DNA from: an uncultured Gammaproteobacteria bacterium
GTDB lineage: Bacteria > Patescibacteriota > Microgenomatia > Woykebacterales > RBG-16-39-9b
DNA length: 64,000 nucleotides
Reading direction: 5' to 3'
NCBI GenBank assembly: GCA_964360785.1
Contig: CAYHXX010000002.1
Location: 28,107 to 92,106 of the forward strand
Positions 10,187 through 60,141 of the stretch are shown here, in pieces. The position numbers were made by a program, and so were the translations under genes. The notes beneath the pieces were generated by a model. It made no database searches, had not been told where the DNA came from, and saw nothing but the letters and a program-made list of their open reading frames with translations. Every line of letters starts with the position of its first letter. The first letter of the stretch is position 1.

Positions 10187-10299
10187 ACCGATGTAGCTCA
10201 GTGAAGAGAGCGCCATTTAAGTCTTGCTTTGTTCGGTGGACGGGACCGAGCAACAGAGAGCATTGGAGGTCGGAGGTTCGAATCCTCCCATCGGTACCA
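10187..10299 (+). tRNA. aberrant 113-nt tRNA-like gene with an insertion of about 37-40 nt between the D arm and T arm; isotype undetermined
   Basis: Canonical acceptor ACCGATG/CATCGGT, D arm GCTC-AGTGAAGA-GAGC, T arm GGAGG-TTCGAAT-CCTCC and CCA end, but 59 nt where an anticodon arm and variable loop would normally take about 22 nt. Confidence 0.5.
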
Positions 10300-36362: not shown

Positions 36363-36420
36363 AAGAAAGCCGCTAGTTCATGCCTGGCTGGCACAAACGT
36401 AGCGGCCTCCTCTCTCTTTT
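36361..36420. terminator. bidirectional intrinsic terminator between the FemAB-like gene and the GC-rich large gene (GCCGCTA...TAGCGGC)
   Basis: 7-bp stem at 36369-36406 with T-rich tracts on both strands. Confidence 0.45.
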
Positions 36421-36432
36421 CCTCCGATCTCT

Positions 36433-38766
36433 TTACTGCTTGATGACGACGATGGTCTCACCGCAGTTGGCGCAGGCCTTGGCAGTGAGAGCGTTCTTGT
36501 ACCCGCATCCGGCCGTGCAGTAGATGAAGTCCCTTGCAGGCTGAGCCGGGGCGGGGGATGTCGTCGGTACCGGAGCCGGCGTTGGTGCTGGCTCTGGCGC
36601 GGGCGCGGGGGCCGGAGTCGGCCTTCCCGTTACCCTCACCGACTTCGTCTTTGGCCCTGGGGCGGGTGCGCTAGCGGCGGCGGCCTTCCTTGCTGCTTCT
36701 ACCACCTCGGGGGGAAGCTCAGCAGCAACGGAACCATCTTCAGGCTCCACCACTGCCTCTTCCTTCGGCAGCTCGCAGCCGCACTCGTCGCAGCGCTTGC
36801 GACCAGGCTGCGCTGGTGTCTTGCAGTTCGGGCAGACCCTTTCCTGTGGCTCGACGATGGCGGCGGGTACGGGGACCGTTGCCAAAGTGCCACACTCGTC
36901 GCAGCGCTTGCGCTCCGGCGCGATCGGCCCGCCGTACTGCACACAGTCCGGGTTCGGGCAGACCTTACCGTCGCCATTGGCCCCAATGGCCTTCATCTGC
37001 TCGGCGACACCAGCCAGGGTGGCCACGTCCCCTAAGGTGGCTGGCTGGACCTCGTCCTGCTGCGGCCCAAAACCGAGATCCCACGACCCTTCGGACGCGA
37101 TCGCATCGATCTCCTTACTCCGACTCACGGTCTGCTCGACATTCGAGGCTTCCGCCACGAGCGTGCGGGCTCCGTTGATCAGAGTTCGTGATTCGACGAG
37201 CGGACTCCTTTGGGCATGAGCTACGCTCGGGTTGTCGAAGTTCTGCCGGTTGGCCACCAGGTTGTCGATCTTGCTCAAGACTGAGCGTCCGGGCGGTGTT
37301 TCGGCGAAGGGTCCGACCGCGTGCTGAGCGTCAGCAATGAACTTGTCGATCTGCTCAAGATTGGCGTCGATCTCCTCGACGGCCAACGAAGCCTCGTACA
37401 GCTCCTCTGCCCGACCAACCAGCTTGAAGGACCCGCCACGCTTCTCACGGGGTGCTGACCCCTTCAAACGCCTTAGCTCGACTTCAAGCTCGCTTGCCTC
37501 AGCAAGGAACCGCTGTGCGTAGCCGTTGTCCGGAAATGCGCCGACCGCCTCCTTGGCCGCACCGACAAAGCACGTCGTCGCCTCAAAGTCAACCTCGGCT
37601 CGGACATCGCGAGCGGCACTGACACTGAGCGTGTAGTTCCGCGCCGGTAGGTGTTGTTGGCGGATCTCGCTGAGTTTGTCCTGAGCCTTCTTGCCGACTT
37701 CACTGGGGTCCCATTTGGGGTCAGCGGCCCGCGCCTTCTCGACGACCTCCTTGATGTGCTCGACGACGCTGAGGATCTGCTGATTAGCGTTGTTCGTCGC
37801 ACAGCTGTCACACCCTTCGACCTGGTTTTCGCGGTCGATGTAGTAGGGCGGGCGGTCTTTCGGGATCGGTTTCAAGCACGGCTCGCCGCTGGGGAGTGTG
37901 TTCTGACACTCTTTCGTTTCGGTCGTCTGCACGGTCACTTCTGCTTCCCTTTCCTCGTGCGTTCGCACGACTACTGACTTGACGCTTGGACTGTGATGTA
38001 CTGCCATTTCTGGCTCCTCTTCTGTTGTCGCAACTGCGGTTGCTCCTCCTTTCGCAACCAAATCAGTCCAGTACTTACTTGCGATTCTGGTTATCTCGTC
38101 CGTCGAGAACTCACTGTTGCGTGTTTCCCAACCGTAAACAGAAGACTCAACCTCTGCCCCGTCCGGGAAATAAACGATCCTGCGGCACTCGCGTGCTATC
38201 TTGATCGTTCTAATCTGCTTTGGCCACGTGATACCCTCCACAGCGGGCAGTTCTGGCTTCTTACCAACTGTGTTTTGGAGAATAGTGATGTTTCGGTTCA
38301 TGAGCGCGACCAGAAACTCAATATCTCTCACGATGTTTCGAAGTTGGCGCTCCACCTCCCTGTTTGGGCCAGAATGTTTGATCTCAACTAGACCTACAAC
38401 CCAAGCGGTTTTGGCTTCGATACTGATGAGAATCCCGTCTGGGTTGTGAAATGCGAGTTTCGGATAGTCAGAGAAAAACGGGGAGCGTGTTCTCAGAAAT
38501 GCCAGAAAGTAATCAGCCACTACCTGCTCTTCAGCAGACATTTGCCTGCCTTCATAATCTGGCGCACTGAGTACAAGCTCTTGAAGAACTCTTCCTCGCT
38601 TATCTGAGATGGTTGGTTCCTGTGAATTATATGTAATTGTTCGGGTGCCTAGGTCATGAAGGTTCGCTGTTTGTAGCGCTCTTTTATCCGGTGTCAGATA
38701 GGGTCGAACCGGGGTGATATGCGCTACGACCTCAGAAACCCAGTGATCGACATCGCGAATACTCAT
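36433..38766 (-). CDS. G+C-rich foreign-looking protein of about 778 aa: N-terminal PD-(D/E)xK nuclease-like domain, long Ala/Glu-rich central region, Pro/Ala linker, three C-terminal zinc ribbons. Start taken at MSIRDVDHW.
   Basis: HNPDGILISIEAKTAWVVGLVEIKHS (PD...ExK). CPNPDCVQYGGPIAPERKRCDECG, CPNCKTPAQPGRKRCDECG, CTAGCGYKNALTAKACANCG. SD GGAAGGAGG lies 8 nt upstream of the ATG at 38764-38766. The ORF-track start 38874 is upstream in AT-rich DNA and unlikely. Confidence 0.55.
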   Translation of the reverse strand: MSIRDVDHWVSEVVAHITPVRPYLTPDKRALQTANLHDLGTRTITYNSQEPTISDKRGRVLQELVLSAPDYEGRQMSAEEQVVADYFLAFLRTRSPFFSDYPKLAFHNPDGILISIEAKTAWVVGLVEIKHSGPNREVERQLRNIVRDIEFLVALMNRNITILQNTVGKKPELPAVEGITWPKQIRTIKIARECRRIVYFPDGAEVESSVYGWETRNSEFSTDEITRIASKYWTDLVAKGGATAVATTEEEPEMAVHHSPSVKSVVVRTHEEREAEVTVQTTETKECQNTLPSGEPCLKPIPKDRPPYYIDRENQVEGCDSCATNNANQQILSVVEHIKEVVEKARAADPKWDPSEVGKKAQDKLSEIRQQHLPARNYTLSVSAARDVRAEVDFEATTCFVGAAKEAVGAFPDNGYAQRFLAEASELEVELRRLKGSAPREKRGGSFKLVGRAEELYEASLAVEEIDANLEQIDKFIADAQHAVGPFAETPPGRSVLSKIDNLVANRQNFDNPSVAHAQRSPLVESRTLINGARTLVAEASNVEQTVSRSKEIDAIASEGSWDLGFGPQQDEVQPATLGDVATLAGVAEQMKAIGANGDGKVCPNPDCVQYGGPIAPERKRCDECGTLATVPVPAAIVEPQERVCPNCKTPAQPGRKRCDECGCELPKEEAVVEPEDGSVAAELPPEVVEAARKAAAASAPAPGPKTKSVRVTGRPTPAPAPAPEPAPTPAPVPTTSPAPAQPARDFIYCTAGCGYKNALTAKACANCGETIVVIKQ

Positions 38767-38797
38767 TCGGATGCCTCCTTCCTCACTTATGAGGCCT

Positions 38798-38825
38798 ATT
38801 ATACACAAAAAGTTGTAAAAGTCAA
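38798..38825 (-). promoter_or_regulatory. sigma70-like promoter of the large GC-rich gene (TTGACT-16-TATAAT on the minus strand)
   Basis: Minus-strand -35 TTGACT at 38820-38825 and -10 TATAAT at 38798-38803. AT-rich, unlike the ORF. Confidence 0.5.
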
Positions 38826-38857
38826 TCCTATAGCAGTTGTCGTGTGATTCTGGGCAT

Positions 38858-38879
38858 AAAAAAACTCCATCCAATGGAG
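38858..38879 (-). terminator. intrinsic terminator downstream of the small zinc-ribbon gene (CTCCAT-TGG-ATGGAG plus TTTTTTT on the minus strand)
   Basis: Hairpin followed by a 7-T run on the minus strand. A second upstream hairpin GGGAGACAG...CTGTCTCCC at 38903-38941. Confidence 0.5.
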
Positions 38880-39039
38880 TTAATTACTTTAAAGATATAG
38901 GTGGGAGACAGTTAGCGCGAGGCTAAACCGATCTGTCTCCCCTGGCGTCCTTCCTGTCTCGGTAAACAGGCACATGAGCTTACGTCATGACAAATCTCCT
39001 GGCCACAGTCTTGTGGCTAACCGCTCACCGTGATGGAAG

Positions 39040-39443
39040 CTACTTGCGCTTCCCCCCGTGAGCCATCTCCTGGTCGTGGCTGCGGCGTTCGGATTGCCGG
39101 GCACGCCATCGCTCCTTCTTGGCCATCTTCCGCACCTTGCGGTTGGCGGCCTCGATGCGGTCGCTGCTGGACTGCTCCGACAGTTCCACGATGAGCTCCT
39201 GGGCCCTGACGAACTTGCCGTTCGTCTTGGCTGTGACCGCCGCGAAGAAGAGTTTCTTCGCCACCGATCCGAGCTCACGCGGGTTGAACCGCCTGAGACT
39301 GCTCTCGACCTGAGAACAGAGGCTCCGGCAACGGCGGCACGTGCTCACGTTGCGGTCCTCGGCCTCGAGGTCTACAACGAACCCCGTATCGCACGAGCGG
39401 CACAGAGTTTCCACTTCAGCCTTGCCGAAAATCGTAACCATTT
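39040..39443 (-). CDS. G+C-rich small zinc-ribbon protein with basic C-terminal tail (about 133 aa; start at MVTIFGKAEV)
   Basis: CRSCD...CRRCRSLC zinc-ribbon-like spacing. Lys/Arg-rich C-terminus (RKVRKMAKKERWRARQSERR). GC-rich third codon positions. Confidence 0.45.
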
Positions 39444-39644
39444 CGTGTCCCCTTTCACAGGAACAACTCACACTTTAGGACGGGGTGAGTAACCGCTTTG
39501 GCTTGAAGCCAAAAAGCCATTCCAAAGGAAACCTTTGGAACAGCTTTATAGCCTCAACTTACCTTCACAAATTTGGCTCTTAAGTTTCGGGGAAGTTTGT
39601 ATTCACCTCCTTTTGATAGATATCCCGTAATTTCTTACGAGCCA

Positions 39645-39709
39645 AGTTTGAAAAGATAAAGGTTTAGGGCGGGTGGGAGGATACTTTGCATTGCTTTCTC
39701 CTCCCACCC
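39645..39709 (-). terminator. intrinsic terminator (11-bp stem GGGTGGGAGGA/TCCTCCCACCC) downstream of the 50-aa ORF on the minus strand
   Basis: Long GC stem at 39671-39709 followed on the minus strand by a T-rich tract. Confidence 0.4.
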
Positions 39710-39745
39710 ATGTGCCCCGCATGTTGTCGTCGCCGGCGTACCTGG

Positions 39746-39898
39746 TTAGCGCTTCTGAGCGGCCAGGGCCCGACAGGTCTGGGTGATCGCGTCGCCGTTG
39801 CCGTACACCCGTGTGGCAACACCACCCGGGAGAACGATCATGCGCGACGGGCCGGTGTTGAAGCTCTTGTATGATACCTTCTGACCAGAACGTGACAT
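39746..39898 (-). CDS. G+C-rich small ORF (about 50 aa, MSRSGQKVSYKSFNTGPSRMIVLPGGVATRVYGNGDAITQTCRALAAQKR); below the ORF-track length cutoff
   Basis: Consensus SD: AGGAGG lies about 8 nt upstream of the ATG. Followed by a terminator. No family recognised. Confidence 0.3.
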   Translation of the reverse strand: MSRSGQKVSYKSFNTGPSRMIVLPGGVATRVYGNGDAITQTCRALAAQKR

Positions 39899-40088
39899 GT
39901 TGGCGGGACCTCCTGTAAAAGCTGAGTCACCTCATTTTGGTGTCTCAAACCTCACTACTAGATAGGGAGATTTCAGATACCAAGACCTCTCTCAAAAAGC
40001 CTGATGCACCACTCAATCTTGATAAAAAGTATAGCACACTTTAGTCCTTTTGTCAAGTACTATGGGTTGTTCTCTGGGTTAGTGGTGA

Positions 40089-43010
40089 TTATTTTTTAGT
40101 TAGGGAAAACGGGCATATAGAATTGTAAGGGCAATAGTTACAGGCAGGTAAGCGGCCGAAGTATTTCGGGTTAGCAGGAAAATTATCGTTTTGTAAATTC
40201 TCTTGAATGTTTTGGGCAACGGTGATAACTTCTTCCTCAGTTTTTTTGATCTCTTCGAGTTTTGGCTGGTAACCGCCTTCAAAACCACTTTCCAGGTCGG
40301 AAATACCAACAAACTCGGGGACAATCCCATAGTTTTTGTAGTAAGCGAGTGTATAAATTTTCAGTTGGACGCTGTCTTTGGCATTTTTTTCTAGCTCTTC
40401 AGCTGTGCGATTTTCTGTGGATTTATAATCAATGATCCTTACTTTTTTGTTTTTTTTATCCTCATCAACTCGATCAAATCTTCCTTTAACCAAAACTTCC
40501 ACACCAGAGATTTTTAACCCGAAACGAAACTCTTTCTCAATATAAGTTGGGAGAATCTTGGAACCTTTCTCGCGCTGCCAAAAAGATTTGAGGACTGCTT
40601 TGGCTTGGATCAACCTTCTTTCCTCGTGTTCAGCGGTGAGGAAACCTTCGTTTATCCAAGTGTTTTCCAAAACTTCGGTGATCTGCGATAGTTTTGGAGT
40701 TTTACCAGCCATTTTACTTTGCCAAAAATCTGCCACGGCGGCGTGCAAGGCAAAACCATAAACAATGGTGTGGTGACGAAGTATCGGTAGGCGCAATATG
40801 TGCGCATAGCGGTATTTGTAGGCACAAGTTTCATAATCATCAATCGAAGATTGGGAAAGAGAAATAATTTTTTTGATACGTATCGGACTTTTGGTTTTTT
40901 CTTTTGCGAAATTGAATTGTTCGATTTTTTCCAGAGCACTCTTTTTTACAGTAACTTGAGTCGCTACGGGTTTATCAAGTGCTTCGAGAACAAAGGGAGA
41001 AACTTTCTTGAGTCTTTTGCCTCCAGCATCTTTGTGCCAAGTGTAGTAAAGCTTGTCCTTGGCCCGGGTACTACCAACATAAAACAACCGCCGCTCCTCC
41101 TGTATATGAAAATCCCCTTCCGGCAGCTCTTCTTTGATCAGCTGCTCGGGGAGCGGGATACTCTCGCCCCTTTCTCTCGAAGGGAAACGGTCTGCCGTCA
41201 AACTGACCATAAAGACAGTGGCGAATTCTAAGCCTTTGGCTGCGTGCACCGTCAGTACGGAAACTGCGTCAAGATCGGGGTCAAAATCAGCGGCGGCCGG
41301 GTCGTCCCCAACTTGCTGCATCGTGATAAGGAAATCGACAAACACTTGCACCGACTCGTTGCGAGCGAGATCAATAAACTCCCGGATCTTGTCAAAAAAC
41401 TTAGCTATGTTTTGGATTTTTAGCTGCGCCTCAACGGTATTTTCCCGTTCCAACTTTTTTAGATATTCGGTCTTTTCCAAAAATTTATAAAGTACTCGTC
41501 CCACATTTTCTTTGCGAGAAAGCGAAAGCAGCTCTTCTTGATCGTTGATTATGTTTTCCACGATCGCACGGCCTTCCGGACTTACTTCAACTTCATCTAG
41601 GACACCTAGATTTTGAAAAACGTAATGCAGATTTTTGTTGCGACGTCGGGCTAAGTCCATACAAGCAATGCAGTCAGGCAGAGGGAGTTGGTAGATTTCT
41701 GAAGTTGCCAAATCGTAAAGACTAAGGCTGTCATCAAAATTTGACAGGCTTTTCAAAAAAGAGATTAATAAACTGATTTCTGGCTGGTTGTACAATCCAG
41801 AGACACCGGAAAATTTAAACGGGATTCCTTTGATATTTAGCGATCTCAAGAAAGGCTCTGCCTGAGAATTTGCTCTCACCAGTATCGCTATGTTCTTAAA
41901 ACTATTAGTTTTGTTTTTTGTAAGTTTTTCTATTTGCCCGGCTACAAAATCAGCTTCCTGGGAAAGAGTTTCAAAAGAAACTTCCTTTGGAGACTCTCCT
42001 GGGGATTCACGAGTCGAAACTAATTTCTTATTAATTTTATTGCGCACTTCTAGCCGATCTGGGTCATTAAAGCGGATCAACCGATAGCTCCTGTCAAGTA
42101 AGTTTTGGTTTGAACGATAATTTTTGGTCAGGACAATTTGCGCTGCTTTTTTGTAGTCAATCTTGAATTTCAAAATATTGGAAATTGCTGCCCCCCGAAA
42201 CTTGTAAATACTTTGATCATCATCTCCCACCACACAAATATTTTTATGAGAGTTGGCCAGCAATTTTACTAGCTCATTCTGGGCATAATTTGTGTCTTGG
42301 TACTCATCGACCAGAATATATTTAAACTTGTTTTGATACTCCTTCAAGATTTGTGGCTGATCTCTGAAAAGTTTTAGAGTGAGATAAACTTGATCGCCAT
42401 AGTCCACTTTTCCGGCGGAGAGCTTGAGGTCCTCATATTTGGTGTAAAAGGAAGCTAGTTCGAACTGTTTCTCGTATTCTTCTTTATCTTGAGATTTCTT
42501 CAGGCCTTTAGCAACTTCCAAGTAATCTTCGGGACTGACATCCTCATCTTTACAACGGCTGATGAGGGCGAGAATACCTTCAATAAACTTTGTTGGATTC
42601 GACAGGGGTCGGTAATGTCTCAGGTCGAAAGCAAAAAGGTTTTGCTGAACAAAAAGAATCTGTTGGGGTTTAGTCAAAACTTGAAAATCCGTCGGCATAC
42701 CCAAATCTAGCGCTTCTTCTCTCAAGATTCGATCTCCAAAAGCATGGAAGGTTGAGATCCAAGTATCAACATAGCCATAGGGAACAAGGATATCGACCCG
42801 TTCTTCCATCTCCGCAGCTGCCTTCTCAGTGAAAGTTAGTGCCAGAATTTCTGAAGGTTTTGCTAGTTTTTTCTCAATGATATAAGCAATTCGTCGACTG
42901 ATAACGGTAGTCTTACCAGTCCCGGCTCCAGCAATTATCAACAAGGGTCCAGCTGTATTGGAAACTGCTTTTGCTTGATCTGGGTTCAGTCCTTTTAAAA
43001 TTTCGCTCAT
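40089..43010 (-). CDS. AddA-like helicase-nuclease: UvrD-family helicase fused to a C-terminal PD-(D/E)xK (RecB/Cas4-like) nuclease with a Cys cluster
   Basis: GAGTGKTTV, DEYQDTN, VGDDDQSIYKFRGA, TVHAAKGLEF. C-terminus has GRFDRVD...IIDYKS and CNYCPYNSIC. Confidence 0.8.
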   Translation of the reverse strand: MSEILKGLNPDQAKAVSNTAGPLLIIAGAGTGKTTVISRRIAYIIEKKLAKPSEILALTFTEKAAAEMEERVDILVPYGYVDTWISTFHAFGDRILREEALDLGMPTDFQVLTKPQQILFVQQNLFAFDLRHYRPLSNPTKFIEGILALISRCKDEDVSPEDYLEVAKGLKKSQDKEEYEKQFELASFYTKYEDLKLSAGKVDYGDQVYLTLKLFRDQPQILKEYQNKFKYILVDEYQDTNYAQNELVKLLANSHKNICVVGDDDQSIYKFRGAAISNILKFKIDYKKAAQIVLTKNYRSNQNLLDRSYRLIRFNDPDRLEVRNKINKKLVSTRESPGESPKEVSFETLSQEADFVAGQIEKLTKNKTNSFKNIAILVRANSQAEPFLRSLNIKGIPFKFSGVSGLYNQPEISLLISFLKSLSNFDDSLSLYDLATSEIYQLPLPDCIACMDLARRRNKNLHYVFQNLGVLDEVEVSPEGRAIVENIINDQEELLSLSRKENVGRVLYKFLEKTEYLKKLERENTVEAQLKIQNIAKFFDKIREFIDLARNESVQVFVDFLITMQQVGDDPAAADFDPDLDAVSVLTVHAAKGLEFATVFMVSLTADRFPSRERGESIPLPEQLIKEELPEGDFHIQEERRLFYVGSTRAKDKLYYTWHKDAGGKRLKKVSPFVLEALDKPVATQVTVKKSALEKIEQFNFAKEKTKSPIRIKKIISLSQSSIDDYETCAYKYRYAHILRLPILRHHTIVYGFALHAAVADFWQSKMAGKTPKLSQITEVLENTWINEGFLTAEHEERRLIQAKAVLKSFWQREKGSKILPTYIEKEFRFGLKISGVEVLVKGRFDRVDEDKKNKKVRIIDYKSTENRTAEELEKNAKDSVQLKIYTLAYYKNYGIVPEFVGISDLESGFEGGYQPKLEEIKKTEEEVITVAQNIQENLQNDNFPANPKYFGRLPACNYCPYNSICPFSLTKK

Positions 43011-59328: not shown

Positions 59329-59426
59329 AAAGTTCCAAGGAAAAGCAACCAAAACCGCTAGTCTTCTTAGACGCAAGTCTAAAAGAGACTTATAGTGTTG
59401 TTCGGTTTTCTTTGGGTACTCTGAAA

Positions 59427-59686
59427 TGAAAAAGCCCGCCCGTACGACCAACCAGCAGGTTGTTTTGTGTCGTACGGAACGGGCTCTTGTGACTTCCGGT
59501 TCGTGTTCAGCTCGTCAGGGTGATGCCTGAGTTGCTGAGTTCAGTGCCGGCGCCGCGCACGCGAGATCAGCCGGACGCGCCGTCGATCTCCAGGTCGAAC
59601 AAGCTTTCGAAAATCACCTGGGACAACCGTCTCATGAAAGGTATCCTTTCCTCGCTACTGAACCAGTTCACTCGAACCAGTCGATA
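59427..59686 (-). ncRNA. candidate structured sRNA (about 260 nt), unassigned, with its own near-consensus promoter and intrinsic terminator
   Basis: Minus-strand TTGACA(59716-59721)-17-TAGAAT(59693-59698). G+C-rich body with no ORF of 60 aa or more. Terminator hairpin at 59433-59485 plus U-run. Confidence 0.45.
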
Positions 59687-59745
59687 AAAAATATTCTAGC
59701 ATATCTTAGCAAATCTGTCAACTATGGGTCTATTGGGATTTTTGT

Positions 59746-60069
59746 TTGGAAATAAAAACGCGGTCAGTGGAAAGCTCATCCGGTACAGCCGATACACAGC
59801 CCGAGCCGGATAATTCTGTTGCCATCCACTAACCGCGGCCGACACTATTCGACTGATTGCTGGTCGCAGGAGCACCTACTGGTATGCAGGTGTGTCGGCT
59901 CTGCCCTCGACCTAAACGTTCGTGTAGCTGTTACGGCTACAGGCGGTGCCCATTTGCCGTACCCTCCTTAGACATGCGCCCTTCTTCCAAACTTAGGTGG
60001 AAGCACCTAGTCGCAGATATCTAGCTTCGCCTCTGTATCTCCCATACGAGCGCTTGCCTACCTGCCACA
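59746..60069 (-). ncRNA. candidate structured RNA (about 320 nt) with RNase P RNA-like motifs (possible reduced rnpB)
   Basis: Minus-strand promoter TTGAAG(60100-60105)-17-TATAAT(60077-60082). RNA contains AAGGAGGGUACGGCAAAUGGGCACCGC...GUAACAG and ACAGAAUUAUCCGGCUCGGGCU, resembling RNase P CR-II/III and CR-V. CR-I was not found. Confidence 0.35.
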
Positions 60070-60141
60070 ATTTCTAATTATATTCCTTTGTCAAGTCTTC
60101 TTCAAACCTAACTGTGTCCAAAATATGCTAAGATATCTGGG

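Follow-up and report, generated by a model that had tools for sequence, protein, structure and literature searches.

A variable, G+C-rich accessory locus with a conserved structured RNA core between AddA-like and FemAB-like genes in Curtissbacteria-related Patescibacteria

The DNA analyzed here is a 64-kb stretch of contig CAYHXX010000002.1 (the window), and its subject is the gap between a FemAB-like gene and an AddA-like gene (36363-40088), in which three minus-strand open reading frames (ORFs) form an island of deviant composition. We find that this whole gap is a variable accessory locus, endemic to a small Curtissbacteria-related clade of Patescibacteria, and that conservation within the island is highest in its non-coding elements, namely a promoter, a structured leader, and an RNA motif, all of which had been missed in the initial annotation of the sequence. 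We hold with high confidence to this descriptive account of a fixed, clade-endemic site with a conserved RNA core and variable G+C-rich cargo, while the function that we propose for it below is more tentative. The features of the island and of the same gap in relatives are listed in Table 1, where contigs other than the window are cited by L numbers and homologous proteins by P numbers.

Table 1. Features of the AddA/FemAB gap in the window and its contents in relatives. GC3, G+C content at third codon positions; positions are those of the window unless a contig is named.
Feature	Position	Strand	Description
Large ORF	36433-38766	minus	777 aa counted from ATG; GC3 0.65
Large ORF, residues 603-777	36436-36960	minus	double zinc ribbon, Ala/Pro-rich disordered linker, terminal zinc ribbon; most G+C-rich part
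Large ORF, residues 280-600	36967-37929	minus	Cys4 ribbon (C287, C297, C319, C322; motif PPYYxD), then rod of 9-10 long helices
Large ORF, residues 1-240	38047-38766	minus	PD-(D/E)xK-like domain, candidate nuclease head; GC3 0.50
Terminator-like hairpin and promoter P2	38863-38881; 38798-38825	minus	TTGACT-16-TATAAT, 11/12; 5' of large gene
Middle ORF	39040-39441	minus	133 aa; GC3 0.83
Hairpin 2	39497-39557	minus	15 bp, then U5 run overlapping small hairpin UUUGGCU-UCA-AGCCAAA; inverted repeat I1
RNA motif	39562-39653	minus	~90 nt; 14-bp closing stem, inner GUAA-GNRA-UUAC hairpin, GGGG/CCCC stem with invariant loop AAGGAGGUGAA
Hairpin 0	39671-39709	minus	GGGUGGGAGGA...UCCUCCCACCC, 11-bp G+C-rich stem 3' of small ORF
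Small ORF	39746-39898	minus	50 aa; GC3 0.74
5' leader of small ORF	39899-40027	minus	conserved with L089, L090
Promoter P1	40028-40056	minus	TTGACA-17-TATACT, extended TG, 11/12 σ70 consensus; just past AddA-like stop codon
Slot family 1 beside RNA			window and L087 type
Slot family 2 beside RNA			L008 and L090 ORFs; no detectable similarity to window middle protein or family B
Slot family B beside RNA	L089 5837-6850; L088 1-975; L007 14056-15378; L091 1166-2047; L009 14714-15772 (-)		300-440 aa; L089, L088, L007, L091; inverted in L009
L087 gap			middle-gene homologue (41% aa, E 2.5e-21) and large homologue P0006 (36-40%)
L089 gap			45-aa ORF, 337-aa ORF, large homologue P0008
L090 gap			45-aa ORF, 132-aa ORF, large homologue P0010
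L008 gap			48-aa peptide, 142-aa ORF, start of large homologue (contig ends there)
L112 gap			large-protein N-domain and middle domain as two separate genes adjoining FemAB
L088			family B ORF, then stand-alone N-domain; contig too short to show flanks
L102 gap			minimal, ~840 bp: promoter, 27-aa ORF, RNA, hairpins; no downstream gene
L100			66-aa Cys-containing ORF after RNA motif
L009 and L010			other Cys-rich, G+C-rich ORFs in gap

Mean G+C content is 0.571 over the island (36.4-39.9 kb), compared with 0.420 over the rest of the window. Counted over 300 nt at a time, it reaches 0.59-0.68 at 36.45-37.95 kb and 0.61-0.63 at 39.0-39.45 kb, while the flanks lie at 0.35-0.47 (~0.40), a level to which the profile returns at 39.9 kb; elsewhere, 500-nt segments above 0.50 occur only at the tRNA cluster at 10 kb and singly at 14.25 and 59.5 kb. 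The enrichment is uneven, as the 5' third of the large gene (38.1-38.85 kb) has a G+C content of 0.45-0.52 and the three spacers within the island have about 0.43-0.52, and GC3 in the large gene is 0.50 over the first 240 codons and 0.72 over the remainder. In the 34 other ORFs of the window with at least 200 aa, GC3 is 0.389 ± 0.041, compared with 0.65-0.83 in the island genes (z-scores of +6 to +10.6), and the codon-adaptation index of the latter, trained on the same 34 ORFs, lies 6 to 10.6 standard deviations (SD) under their mean. Sliding G+C, GC3, and codon-adaptation analyses therefore bear out the sharp compositional outlier described in the initial annotation, and our ORF list agrees with its three co-oriented genes, each with a ribosome-binding site; the strong promoter that it assigned to the large gene corresponds to P2.

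The middle gene could be compared with a homologue from the neighboring well H51 (L113, 84% identical protein), and a dN/dS of 0.22-0.29 at a dS of about 0.5, together with codon-position differences of 17/20/37, shows that it is a real gene on the minus strand in the called frame. An ORF of 144 aa on the opposite strand (39058-39492, plus strand), which the gene caller picked in one public assembly (L001 9275-9691), was rejected because of the codon-position pattern and the homologues on the opposite strand; antisense ORFs over this gene, and several over the large gene too, are explained by the scarcity of stop codons in G+C-rich DNA.

The island was described as accessory and devoid of visible mobility genes, and this holds, as no ORF or Pfam match in 36.3-40.1 kb points to an integrase, transposase, or recombinase, and no tRNA gene lies within 12 kb, the nearest being at 10 kb and 52 kb. 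The sole flanking repeat, the 13-mer TTGACAAAAGRAC, has one mismatch and is not kept in relatives; we rejected it as an attachment site since its two copies are a -35 box and FemAB codons (a GSFVK stretch).

Abrupt G+C steps at both island ends and low coverage, about 4-5x by contig names, are compatible with an assembly chimera in which the contig of a high-GC organism was joined into a low-GC genome. However, the separately assembled 0.1 µm replicates R2 (L001, 29.7 kb) and R1 (L002, 14.2 kb) from the Hainich groundwater well H52 yielded contigs that span both junctions at 99.95-99.97% identity, and partial coverage at 100% comes from replicate R3 and from Logan assemblies of three further runs. 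The mismatches against the window are few and scattered, with no clustering at the junctions, and the exact 133-aa protein and the 777-aa protein, different by at most a residue or so, are recorded from several assemblies. Other species from other studies show the same arrangement, and the spacers within the island are host-like in composition and conserved with relatives. A chimera, which had been raised as one possible refutation of the island, is thus excluded for practical purposes, and we consider its probability negligible. In the R1 assembly, a 1-nt deletion at window position 42206 (L002 1500-1590) splits the AddA-like gene into ORFs of 279 aa and 663 aa, a difference explained by variation in the population or by an assembly error at low coverage.

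The large protein combines a putative nuclease head with zinc ribbons. AlphaFold2 modeled its N-domain with a pLDDT of 83.5 and a pTM of 0.80, giving a confidently predicted α/β core in which D110 stands before strand 111-117 and E128-x-K130 ends the adjacent strand 120-129, with a long helix next. D110, E128, K130, and Q141 are invariant in an alignment of 12 homologues, so that the PD-(D/E)xK catalytic motif, D...E-x-K on consecutive core strands, is present in the model, followed by a helix with the invariant Q, as in that superfamily. Foldseek returned no significant match for the model; the weak top matches were mostly PD-(D/E)xK nucleases, and the longest structural alignments, none of them significant, were to type II restriction enzymes. 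No nuclease family matched the large protein in Pfam, NCBIfam, or PDB sequence searches, and PDB profile searches with the N-domain gave nothing meaningful, nor did those with family B, an orphan G+C-rich family of the relatives that also has no Pfam, NCBIfam, or PDB match. The model makes the head most like PD-(D/E)xK nucleases, with superfamily membership only partly established, and whether the large protein is an active nuclease is, in our estimate, an even call.

Beyond the Cys4 ribbon of the middle part, the C-terminus carries cysteines at C603/608/622/625, C645/648/659/662, and C750/754/765/768, with Pfam matches to DZR (E 4.4e-05) and Zn_Ribbon_1 (E 0.009), neither of which reaches its curated cut-off. 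An internal 31-nt repeat (D1) in the gene mirrors two of the ribbons, and the same C-terminal layout recurs in P0006-P0008, P0010, P0012, and P0015. The nuclease/zinc-ribbon protein of the initial annotation is therefore recognizable in a nuclease-like head joined to four Cys4 ribbons. The middle protein has an N-terminal CxxC...CxxC zinc ribbon, a helical center, and a very basic C-terminal tail, and its homologues in L087 and L113 stand at the same position. The small ORF is 52% identical (E 3e-16) to the 48-aa ORF at the same position in L008, and this slot holds a second, weakly related peptide type in L089, L090, and L113 and a third type in L009 and L102; the peptide has no family match and no recognizable feature. 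No transmembrane segments are predicted in the three proteins (maximum 19-residue hydropathy 1.46).

All three proteins gave 0 families at E <=1 in PADLOC-DB 2.0, and their best PHROGs matches (E 0.015-0.86) were not convincing. When six cargo ORFs of relatives were added, searches of Pfam, PADLOC, PHROGs, and NCBIfam still yielded only sub-threshold zinc-ribbon matches, and viral contigs (IMG/VR) held no match to the island by peptide or by RNA pattern. Suggestions that the island could be a known defense system or a phage remnant are thus not sustained, and the locus belongs to no curated defense, phage, RNA, or protein family tested.

In nucleotide comparison, the spacers of the island are better kept than its genes. 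Upstream of the small ORF, the P1 region includes a block of 37-44 nt that is 82-93% identical in L008, L009, L010, and L087, and L089, L090, and L102 have this promoter too. For the leader that follows, RNAalifold proposes a long hairpin with 4 compensated pairs, a weak signal from 3 sequences only. Counterparts of hairpin 0 (GGGAGG/CCUCCC stems) occur at the same place in L008, L089, L090, L096, L100, and L102; its putative function is that of a terminator or a processing site. Just upstream of hairpin 0, L100 (40-70, plus strand) and L102 (2440-2470, minus strand) have a tiny conserved ORF with a strong Shine-Dalgarno (SD) sequence, MTWP* and MTWPLSH*, respectively, which may be a leader peptide.

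The RNA motif is 80-87% identical in nucleotide sequence to its counterparts in L087, L089, L090, and L008, whereas the AddA 3' end reaches 69-71% and the large N-domain 60-64%. Ten sequences could be aligned, with a mean identity of 81%; RNAalifold finds compensatory changes at five pairs of the closing stem, the tetraloop of the inner hairpin varies only within GNRA (GAAA, GCAA, GUAA, GUGA), and the fold is more stable than that of shuffled sequences (z = -4.4 to -4.6). We take the invariant loop to be a near-perfect complement of the 3' end of bacterial 16S rRNA, and hence a maximal SD mimic. No conserved start codon comes after it, and since indels also disrupt the reading frame, a small ORF within the motif was rejected. 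With a covariance model, R1, the sense strand reaches 85-103 bits and the antisense strand 21-35, and there is one match per locus, with weaker variants in L009 and L010 (34-39 bits) and no match in distant relatives. Nothing in Rfam matches 36.0-40.4 kb at E <=1, and at gathering scores the window holds tRNAs only, so the motif is an unclassified structured RNA that is absent from Rfam.

Downstream of the motif, hairpin 2 has both sides changed at 5 of its 15 pairs and none broken across five sequences (window, L113, L087, L008, and L090), and in L007, L089, and L091 a different intrinsic terminator takes its place after the RNA motif. From its sequence, we read hairpin 2 with its U5 run as a putative intrinsic terminator or attenuator that separates the RNA motif from the middle gene. 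From hairpin 2 to the start of the middle gene there is no promoter-like site, and the locus thereby presents the parts of a terminator-type leader, with a covarying structured domain, then a terminator-like hairpin with U5, and a downstream gene with no promoter of its own. The large gene is preceded by P2, and a near-identical copy of this promoter (TTGACTTTTCCAATAATTTGTGTATAAT) precedes its orthologue in L089. The RNA motif in L007 and L091 starts ~35 nt past its own promoter, without a small ORF.

The AddA-like protein is 57-60% identical to its counterparts in Candidatus Curtissbacteria metagenome-assembled genomes (MAGs) and 69-72% identical to those in other Patescibacteria MAGs; the nearest named relatives are thus Candidatus Curtissbacteria and not the Saccharibacteria-type organism that had been considered. 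The closest syntenic relatives, L007-L010, are publicly labeled as Nanoarchaeia archaeon, Gammaproteobacteria bacterium, and Saccharimonadales bacterium, and look like mislabeled Patescibacteria MAGs. RmuC, AddA, FemAB, a G5/3D protein, and UvrD stand in synteny in relatives, and where AddA is 67-76% identical, the AddA-FemAB gap is also G+C-elevated; counted together, at least seven related Patescibacteria lineages have orthologous cassettes there. Orthologous cassette genes lie between AddA and FemAB in L087, L089, L090, L008, and L112, while L007, L009, L010, L091, L096, L100, and L102 have the promoter and/or the RNA motif in the gap with other cargo or none. In more distant Curtissbacteria, whose AddA is 57-60% identical, a methyltransferase-like membrane protein occupies the gap and there is no trace of the cassette. 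These bacteria keep UvrD, AddA, and RmuC nonetheless, and for this reason we rejected a functional link of the cassette to these DNA-processing neighbors, from which a joint module had been surmised. Between the AddA stop codon and P1, three relatives have low-GC ORFs of 120-165 aa (L010 12993-13412, L087 8005-8397, L007 12879-13760) that have no equivalent in the window, and those of L010 and L087 look related by eye, with a common KGVP(V/L)W(F/Y)RE stretch.

The protein families of the island are confined to this site. Residues 1-600 of the large protein, searched exhaustively with HMMER against 1.84 billion proteins, matched 14 representatives, and all five members with visible flanks sit at the AddA/FemAB locus. 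In a word-indexed search of a 5.8-billion-protein collection, the 777-aa query retrieved only itself among the 8000 candidates that had most words in common with it, the N-domain profile only two stand-alone homologues, and the middle protein only itself and the 84% variant from well H51. Scanning JGI metagenomes with the RNA motif as a DNA pattern gave 21 matches, of which 5 are real, all with the same synteny, and the others are due to chance. The families are therefore endemic to the AddA/FemAB locus of the clade, with no sign of a high-GC donor.

This distribution bears on the origin of the island, for which insertion from a high-GC donor had been suggested, with an actinobacterial host as a speculative candidate. 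A recent horizontal acquisition, in which 3.5 kb from such a host, a phage, or a plasmid entered between FemAB and AddA, would explain why the codon usage is so strongly foreign and why the content of the locus differs among relatives. Ala/Pro-rich linkers and double zinc ribbons are also frequent in high-GC bacteria. However, a recent import should be absent from relatives or ameliorated there, and neither is seen, as the same three-slot cassette with the same GC3 pattern occupies the same site in lineages whose AddA is 69-76% identical. In the five species compared (window, L087, L089, L090, and L008), GC3 is 0.57-0.88 for the ORFs of the small and middle slots and for the C-terminal portion of the large ORF, 0.44-0.57 for the large N-domain, and 0.33-0.44 for the flanking AddA and FemAB genes, and the spacers within the cassette have a G+C content of 0.36-0.51; in every species the profile has a maximum over each ORF and a trough over each spacer. 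The host-like, conserved spacers, the lack of homologues outside the locus among 1.84e9 representatives or in viral contigs, and the lack of an integrase, transposase, tRNA, or conserved flanking repeat argue in the same direction, and comparison with relatives, proposed as a way to define the insertion boundaries and direct repeats, found the cassette present there. Recent acquisition is thus already largely refuted and in our view very improbable, and the cassette is neither a recent insertion nor a fresh import. Of the accessory, nucleic-acid-targeting module inserted from a high-GC donor that was first proposed, the accessory part is supported, nucleic-acid targeting may hold, and the donor is not supported, the protein families having turned up nowhere else among the 1.84 billion representatives or, in the matches listed, in the 5.8-billion-protein collection.

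The cargo of the locus is a mosaic. At least three unrelated families occupy the slot beside the RNA, and across relatives the large gene is fused, split, or replaced. Between species, the large N-domain is 37-48% identical, compared with 69-76% for the C-terminal 335 aa of AddA. In L113, a 235-nt RNA region is ~98% identical to that of the window, the middle gene has diverged with a dN of 0.10-0.145 and a dS of 0.47-0.50, and the upstream small ORF is of the L090 type and not the window type. Either the RNA is constrained far more than synonymous sites, or modules have been exchanged around it, or both.

These observations also suit an exchangeable cassette, in which the promoter and RNA would be a recombination anchor, integron-like or a hot spot, and G+C-rich cargo would be swapped within the clade by homologous recombination, with GC-biased gene conversion at the hot spot driving the G+C richness. 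The near-identical RNA region of L113 and the window beside different small-ORF types and a diverged middle gene, the unrelated families of the middle slot, the rearranged large gene, and an N-domain identity that does not track AddA identity over five roughly equidistant genomes all speak for it, and GC-biased gene conversion has been proposed to act in bacteria (PMC4450053). Nevertheless, there is no recombinase and there are no attC-like repeats, five genomes offer too little resolution for tree incongruence, and pure conversion bias predicts a uniform GC3, while the N-domain (0.44-0.57) differs from the rest (0.57-0.72). We consider this explanation unlikely, though it deserves a place on the list, and it is compatible with, and partly overlaps, the one that we prefer below. 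Candidate causes for the lasting G+C richness of the ORFs are GC-biased gene conversion at a hot spot, selection on rare codons or structured mRNA, and amino-acid composition, among which the constrained spacers cannot discriminate.

The explanation that we prefer for the locus as a whole is a clade-endemic, mosaic, nucleic-acid-targeting conflict module under RNA-leader control, to which we assign a probability of roughly one half. It has a fixed core, made of P1, often a short G+C-rich ORF, the structured RNA motif, and the covarying hairpin with its U-run, and 3' of this core come shuffled, clade-specific genes that are all G+C-rich in their codons and all fast-evolving. In the proposed scheme, transcripts from P1 would end mostly at the hairpin with the U-run, and the RNA motif, through its ribosome-binding-site mimic that lacks a start codon, would probably bind the 30S subunit or a protein, and this binding would set how stable the RNA is and how much transcription reads through into the middle gene, which has no promoter of its own. 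P2 would drive the large gene, whose product could act as a cytoplasmic nuclease that its zinc ribbons tether to nucleic acid or partner proteins. The module would serve genetic conflict, either as a defense against phage or other mobile DNA or in a toxin-like role, and rare G+C-rich codons may keep the expression of a potentially toxic nuclease low. Genetic conflict is suggested because the cargo is diverse and fast-changing. Taken by itself, the RNA-leader role has, in our judgment, somewhat less than an even chance, and the conflict or defense role is a little less probable still.

Several points weigh against this explanation. The promoters, termination, and read-through are predictions from sequence, and both throttling by rare codons and the conflict function come from the pattern alone. 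The same applies to protein function, as PADLOC, Pfam, NCBIfam, PHROG, and PDB searches gave no family match beyond the sub-threshold zinc ribbons. Covariation rests on 5-10 closely related sequences in which the motif is largely invariant, and invariance is silent on structure. All the relatives compared are uncultivated MAG or contig fragments. Finally, the RNA is present without cargo in L102, so its role may be unrelated to the protein genes.

This last observation leads to an alternative in which the conserved RNA is the real gene, either a small regulatory RNA or an RNA antitoxin of a type III-like system, and the downstream proteins are toxin partners or passengers. The RNA is the most conserved and the only universal element of the locus, and in L007 and L091 it comes closely after its own promoter and before an intrinsic terminator. 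In ToxIN and other type III systems, the order is promoter, RNA, terminator, and promoter-less protein gene, and this is the layout found here. However, tandem RNA repeats, which define type III antitoxins, are absent from 39.44-39.75 kb, where the motif is single-copy, and the downstream proteins match no toxin family. The protein beside the RNA also differs in family between species, which is hard to square with a specific RNA-protein pair, and we regard this alternative as distinctly improbable compared with RNA-leader control of a conflict module.

In its way of working, the locus comes closest to a variable accessory hot spot that has a terminator-type RNA leader. It shares with accessory and defense hot spots a fixed site between conserved genes, fast-evolving and composition-deviant variable content, and a nuclease-like member. 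Unlike them, it has no known defense family, its cargo families are endemic to one site, this cargo is G+C-richer rather than A+T-richer than the host and stays so across species, and a conserved promoter and a structured RNA belong to the site itself. With terminating riboswitches and leaders, and with ToxIN-like type III toxin-antitoxin systems, it has in common a promoter, a structured RNA, a covarying terminator-like hairpin, and a promoter-less gene. It differs from the former in that its RNA has no Rfam match and the regulated genes suggest no ligand, and from the latter in the missing antitoxin repeats, in the absence of a known toxin fold, and in the occurrence of the RNA without a downstream gene. 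The strong leader SD without a start codon, complementary to the 16S rRNA 3' end, resembles the STAB-SD of cry3A in Bacillus thuringiensis, a non-initiating SD that binds 30S and stabilizes the mRNA (PMC4113751). In contrast to the STAB-SD, the mimic of the cassette sits in a loop of a three-helix RNA with a GNRA hairpin, then comes a terminator-like hairpin, and both 30S binding and stabilization are putative.

The cassette is a counter-example to the use of G+C and codon deviation as evidence of recent transfer, as its deviation of 6-10 SD equals that of textbook islands and yet it is syntenic, endemic, and stable across species with core proteins ~70% identical. New here are the unclassified structured RNA with its invariant Shine-Dalgarno mimic and several orphan protein families, among which is a probable new PD-(D/E)xK branch joined to a helical rod and zinc ribbons, in a hypervariable locus of ultra-small groundwater bacteria whose phage-defense and host-interaction genes are poorly known. 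A bolder version, which we consider unlikely, is an RNA-centered conflict module of one Patescibacteria clade in which an SD-mimic RNA governs shuffled orphan zinc-ribbon proteins, among them the new PD-(D/E)xK branch, and in which a locus-specific force keeps the ORFs G+C-rich. If this were true, GC-biased gene conversion at a hot spot, or selection for rare codons or for structured mRNA, might supply the force, and the usual reading of deviant G+C as a mark of recent import would fail at this cassette. If such locus-specific enrichment is at work, polymorphism spectra from the replicated Hainich wells could test it directly.

Two further features of the window lie away from the island. Right after the Trp/Pro/Ala tRNA cluster, Rfam detects a fifth tRNA (10187-10296, plus strand; 51 bits, 110 nt) that ARAGORN did not report, with an apparent insertion of ~36 nt after the anticodon region and the end ...GGTACCA. 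Between an NYN/LabA-like ORF and a tsaD-like gene, ~800 nt (59329-60141) contain no ORF of at least 60 aa and have raised G+C (0.526 at 59.5 kb); with no Rfam match even at E <=1, this stretch may be an unclassified RNA.

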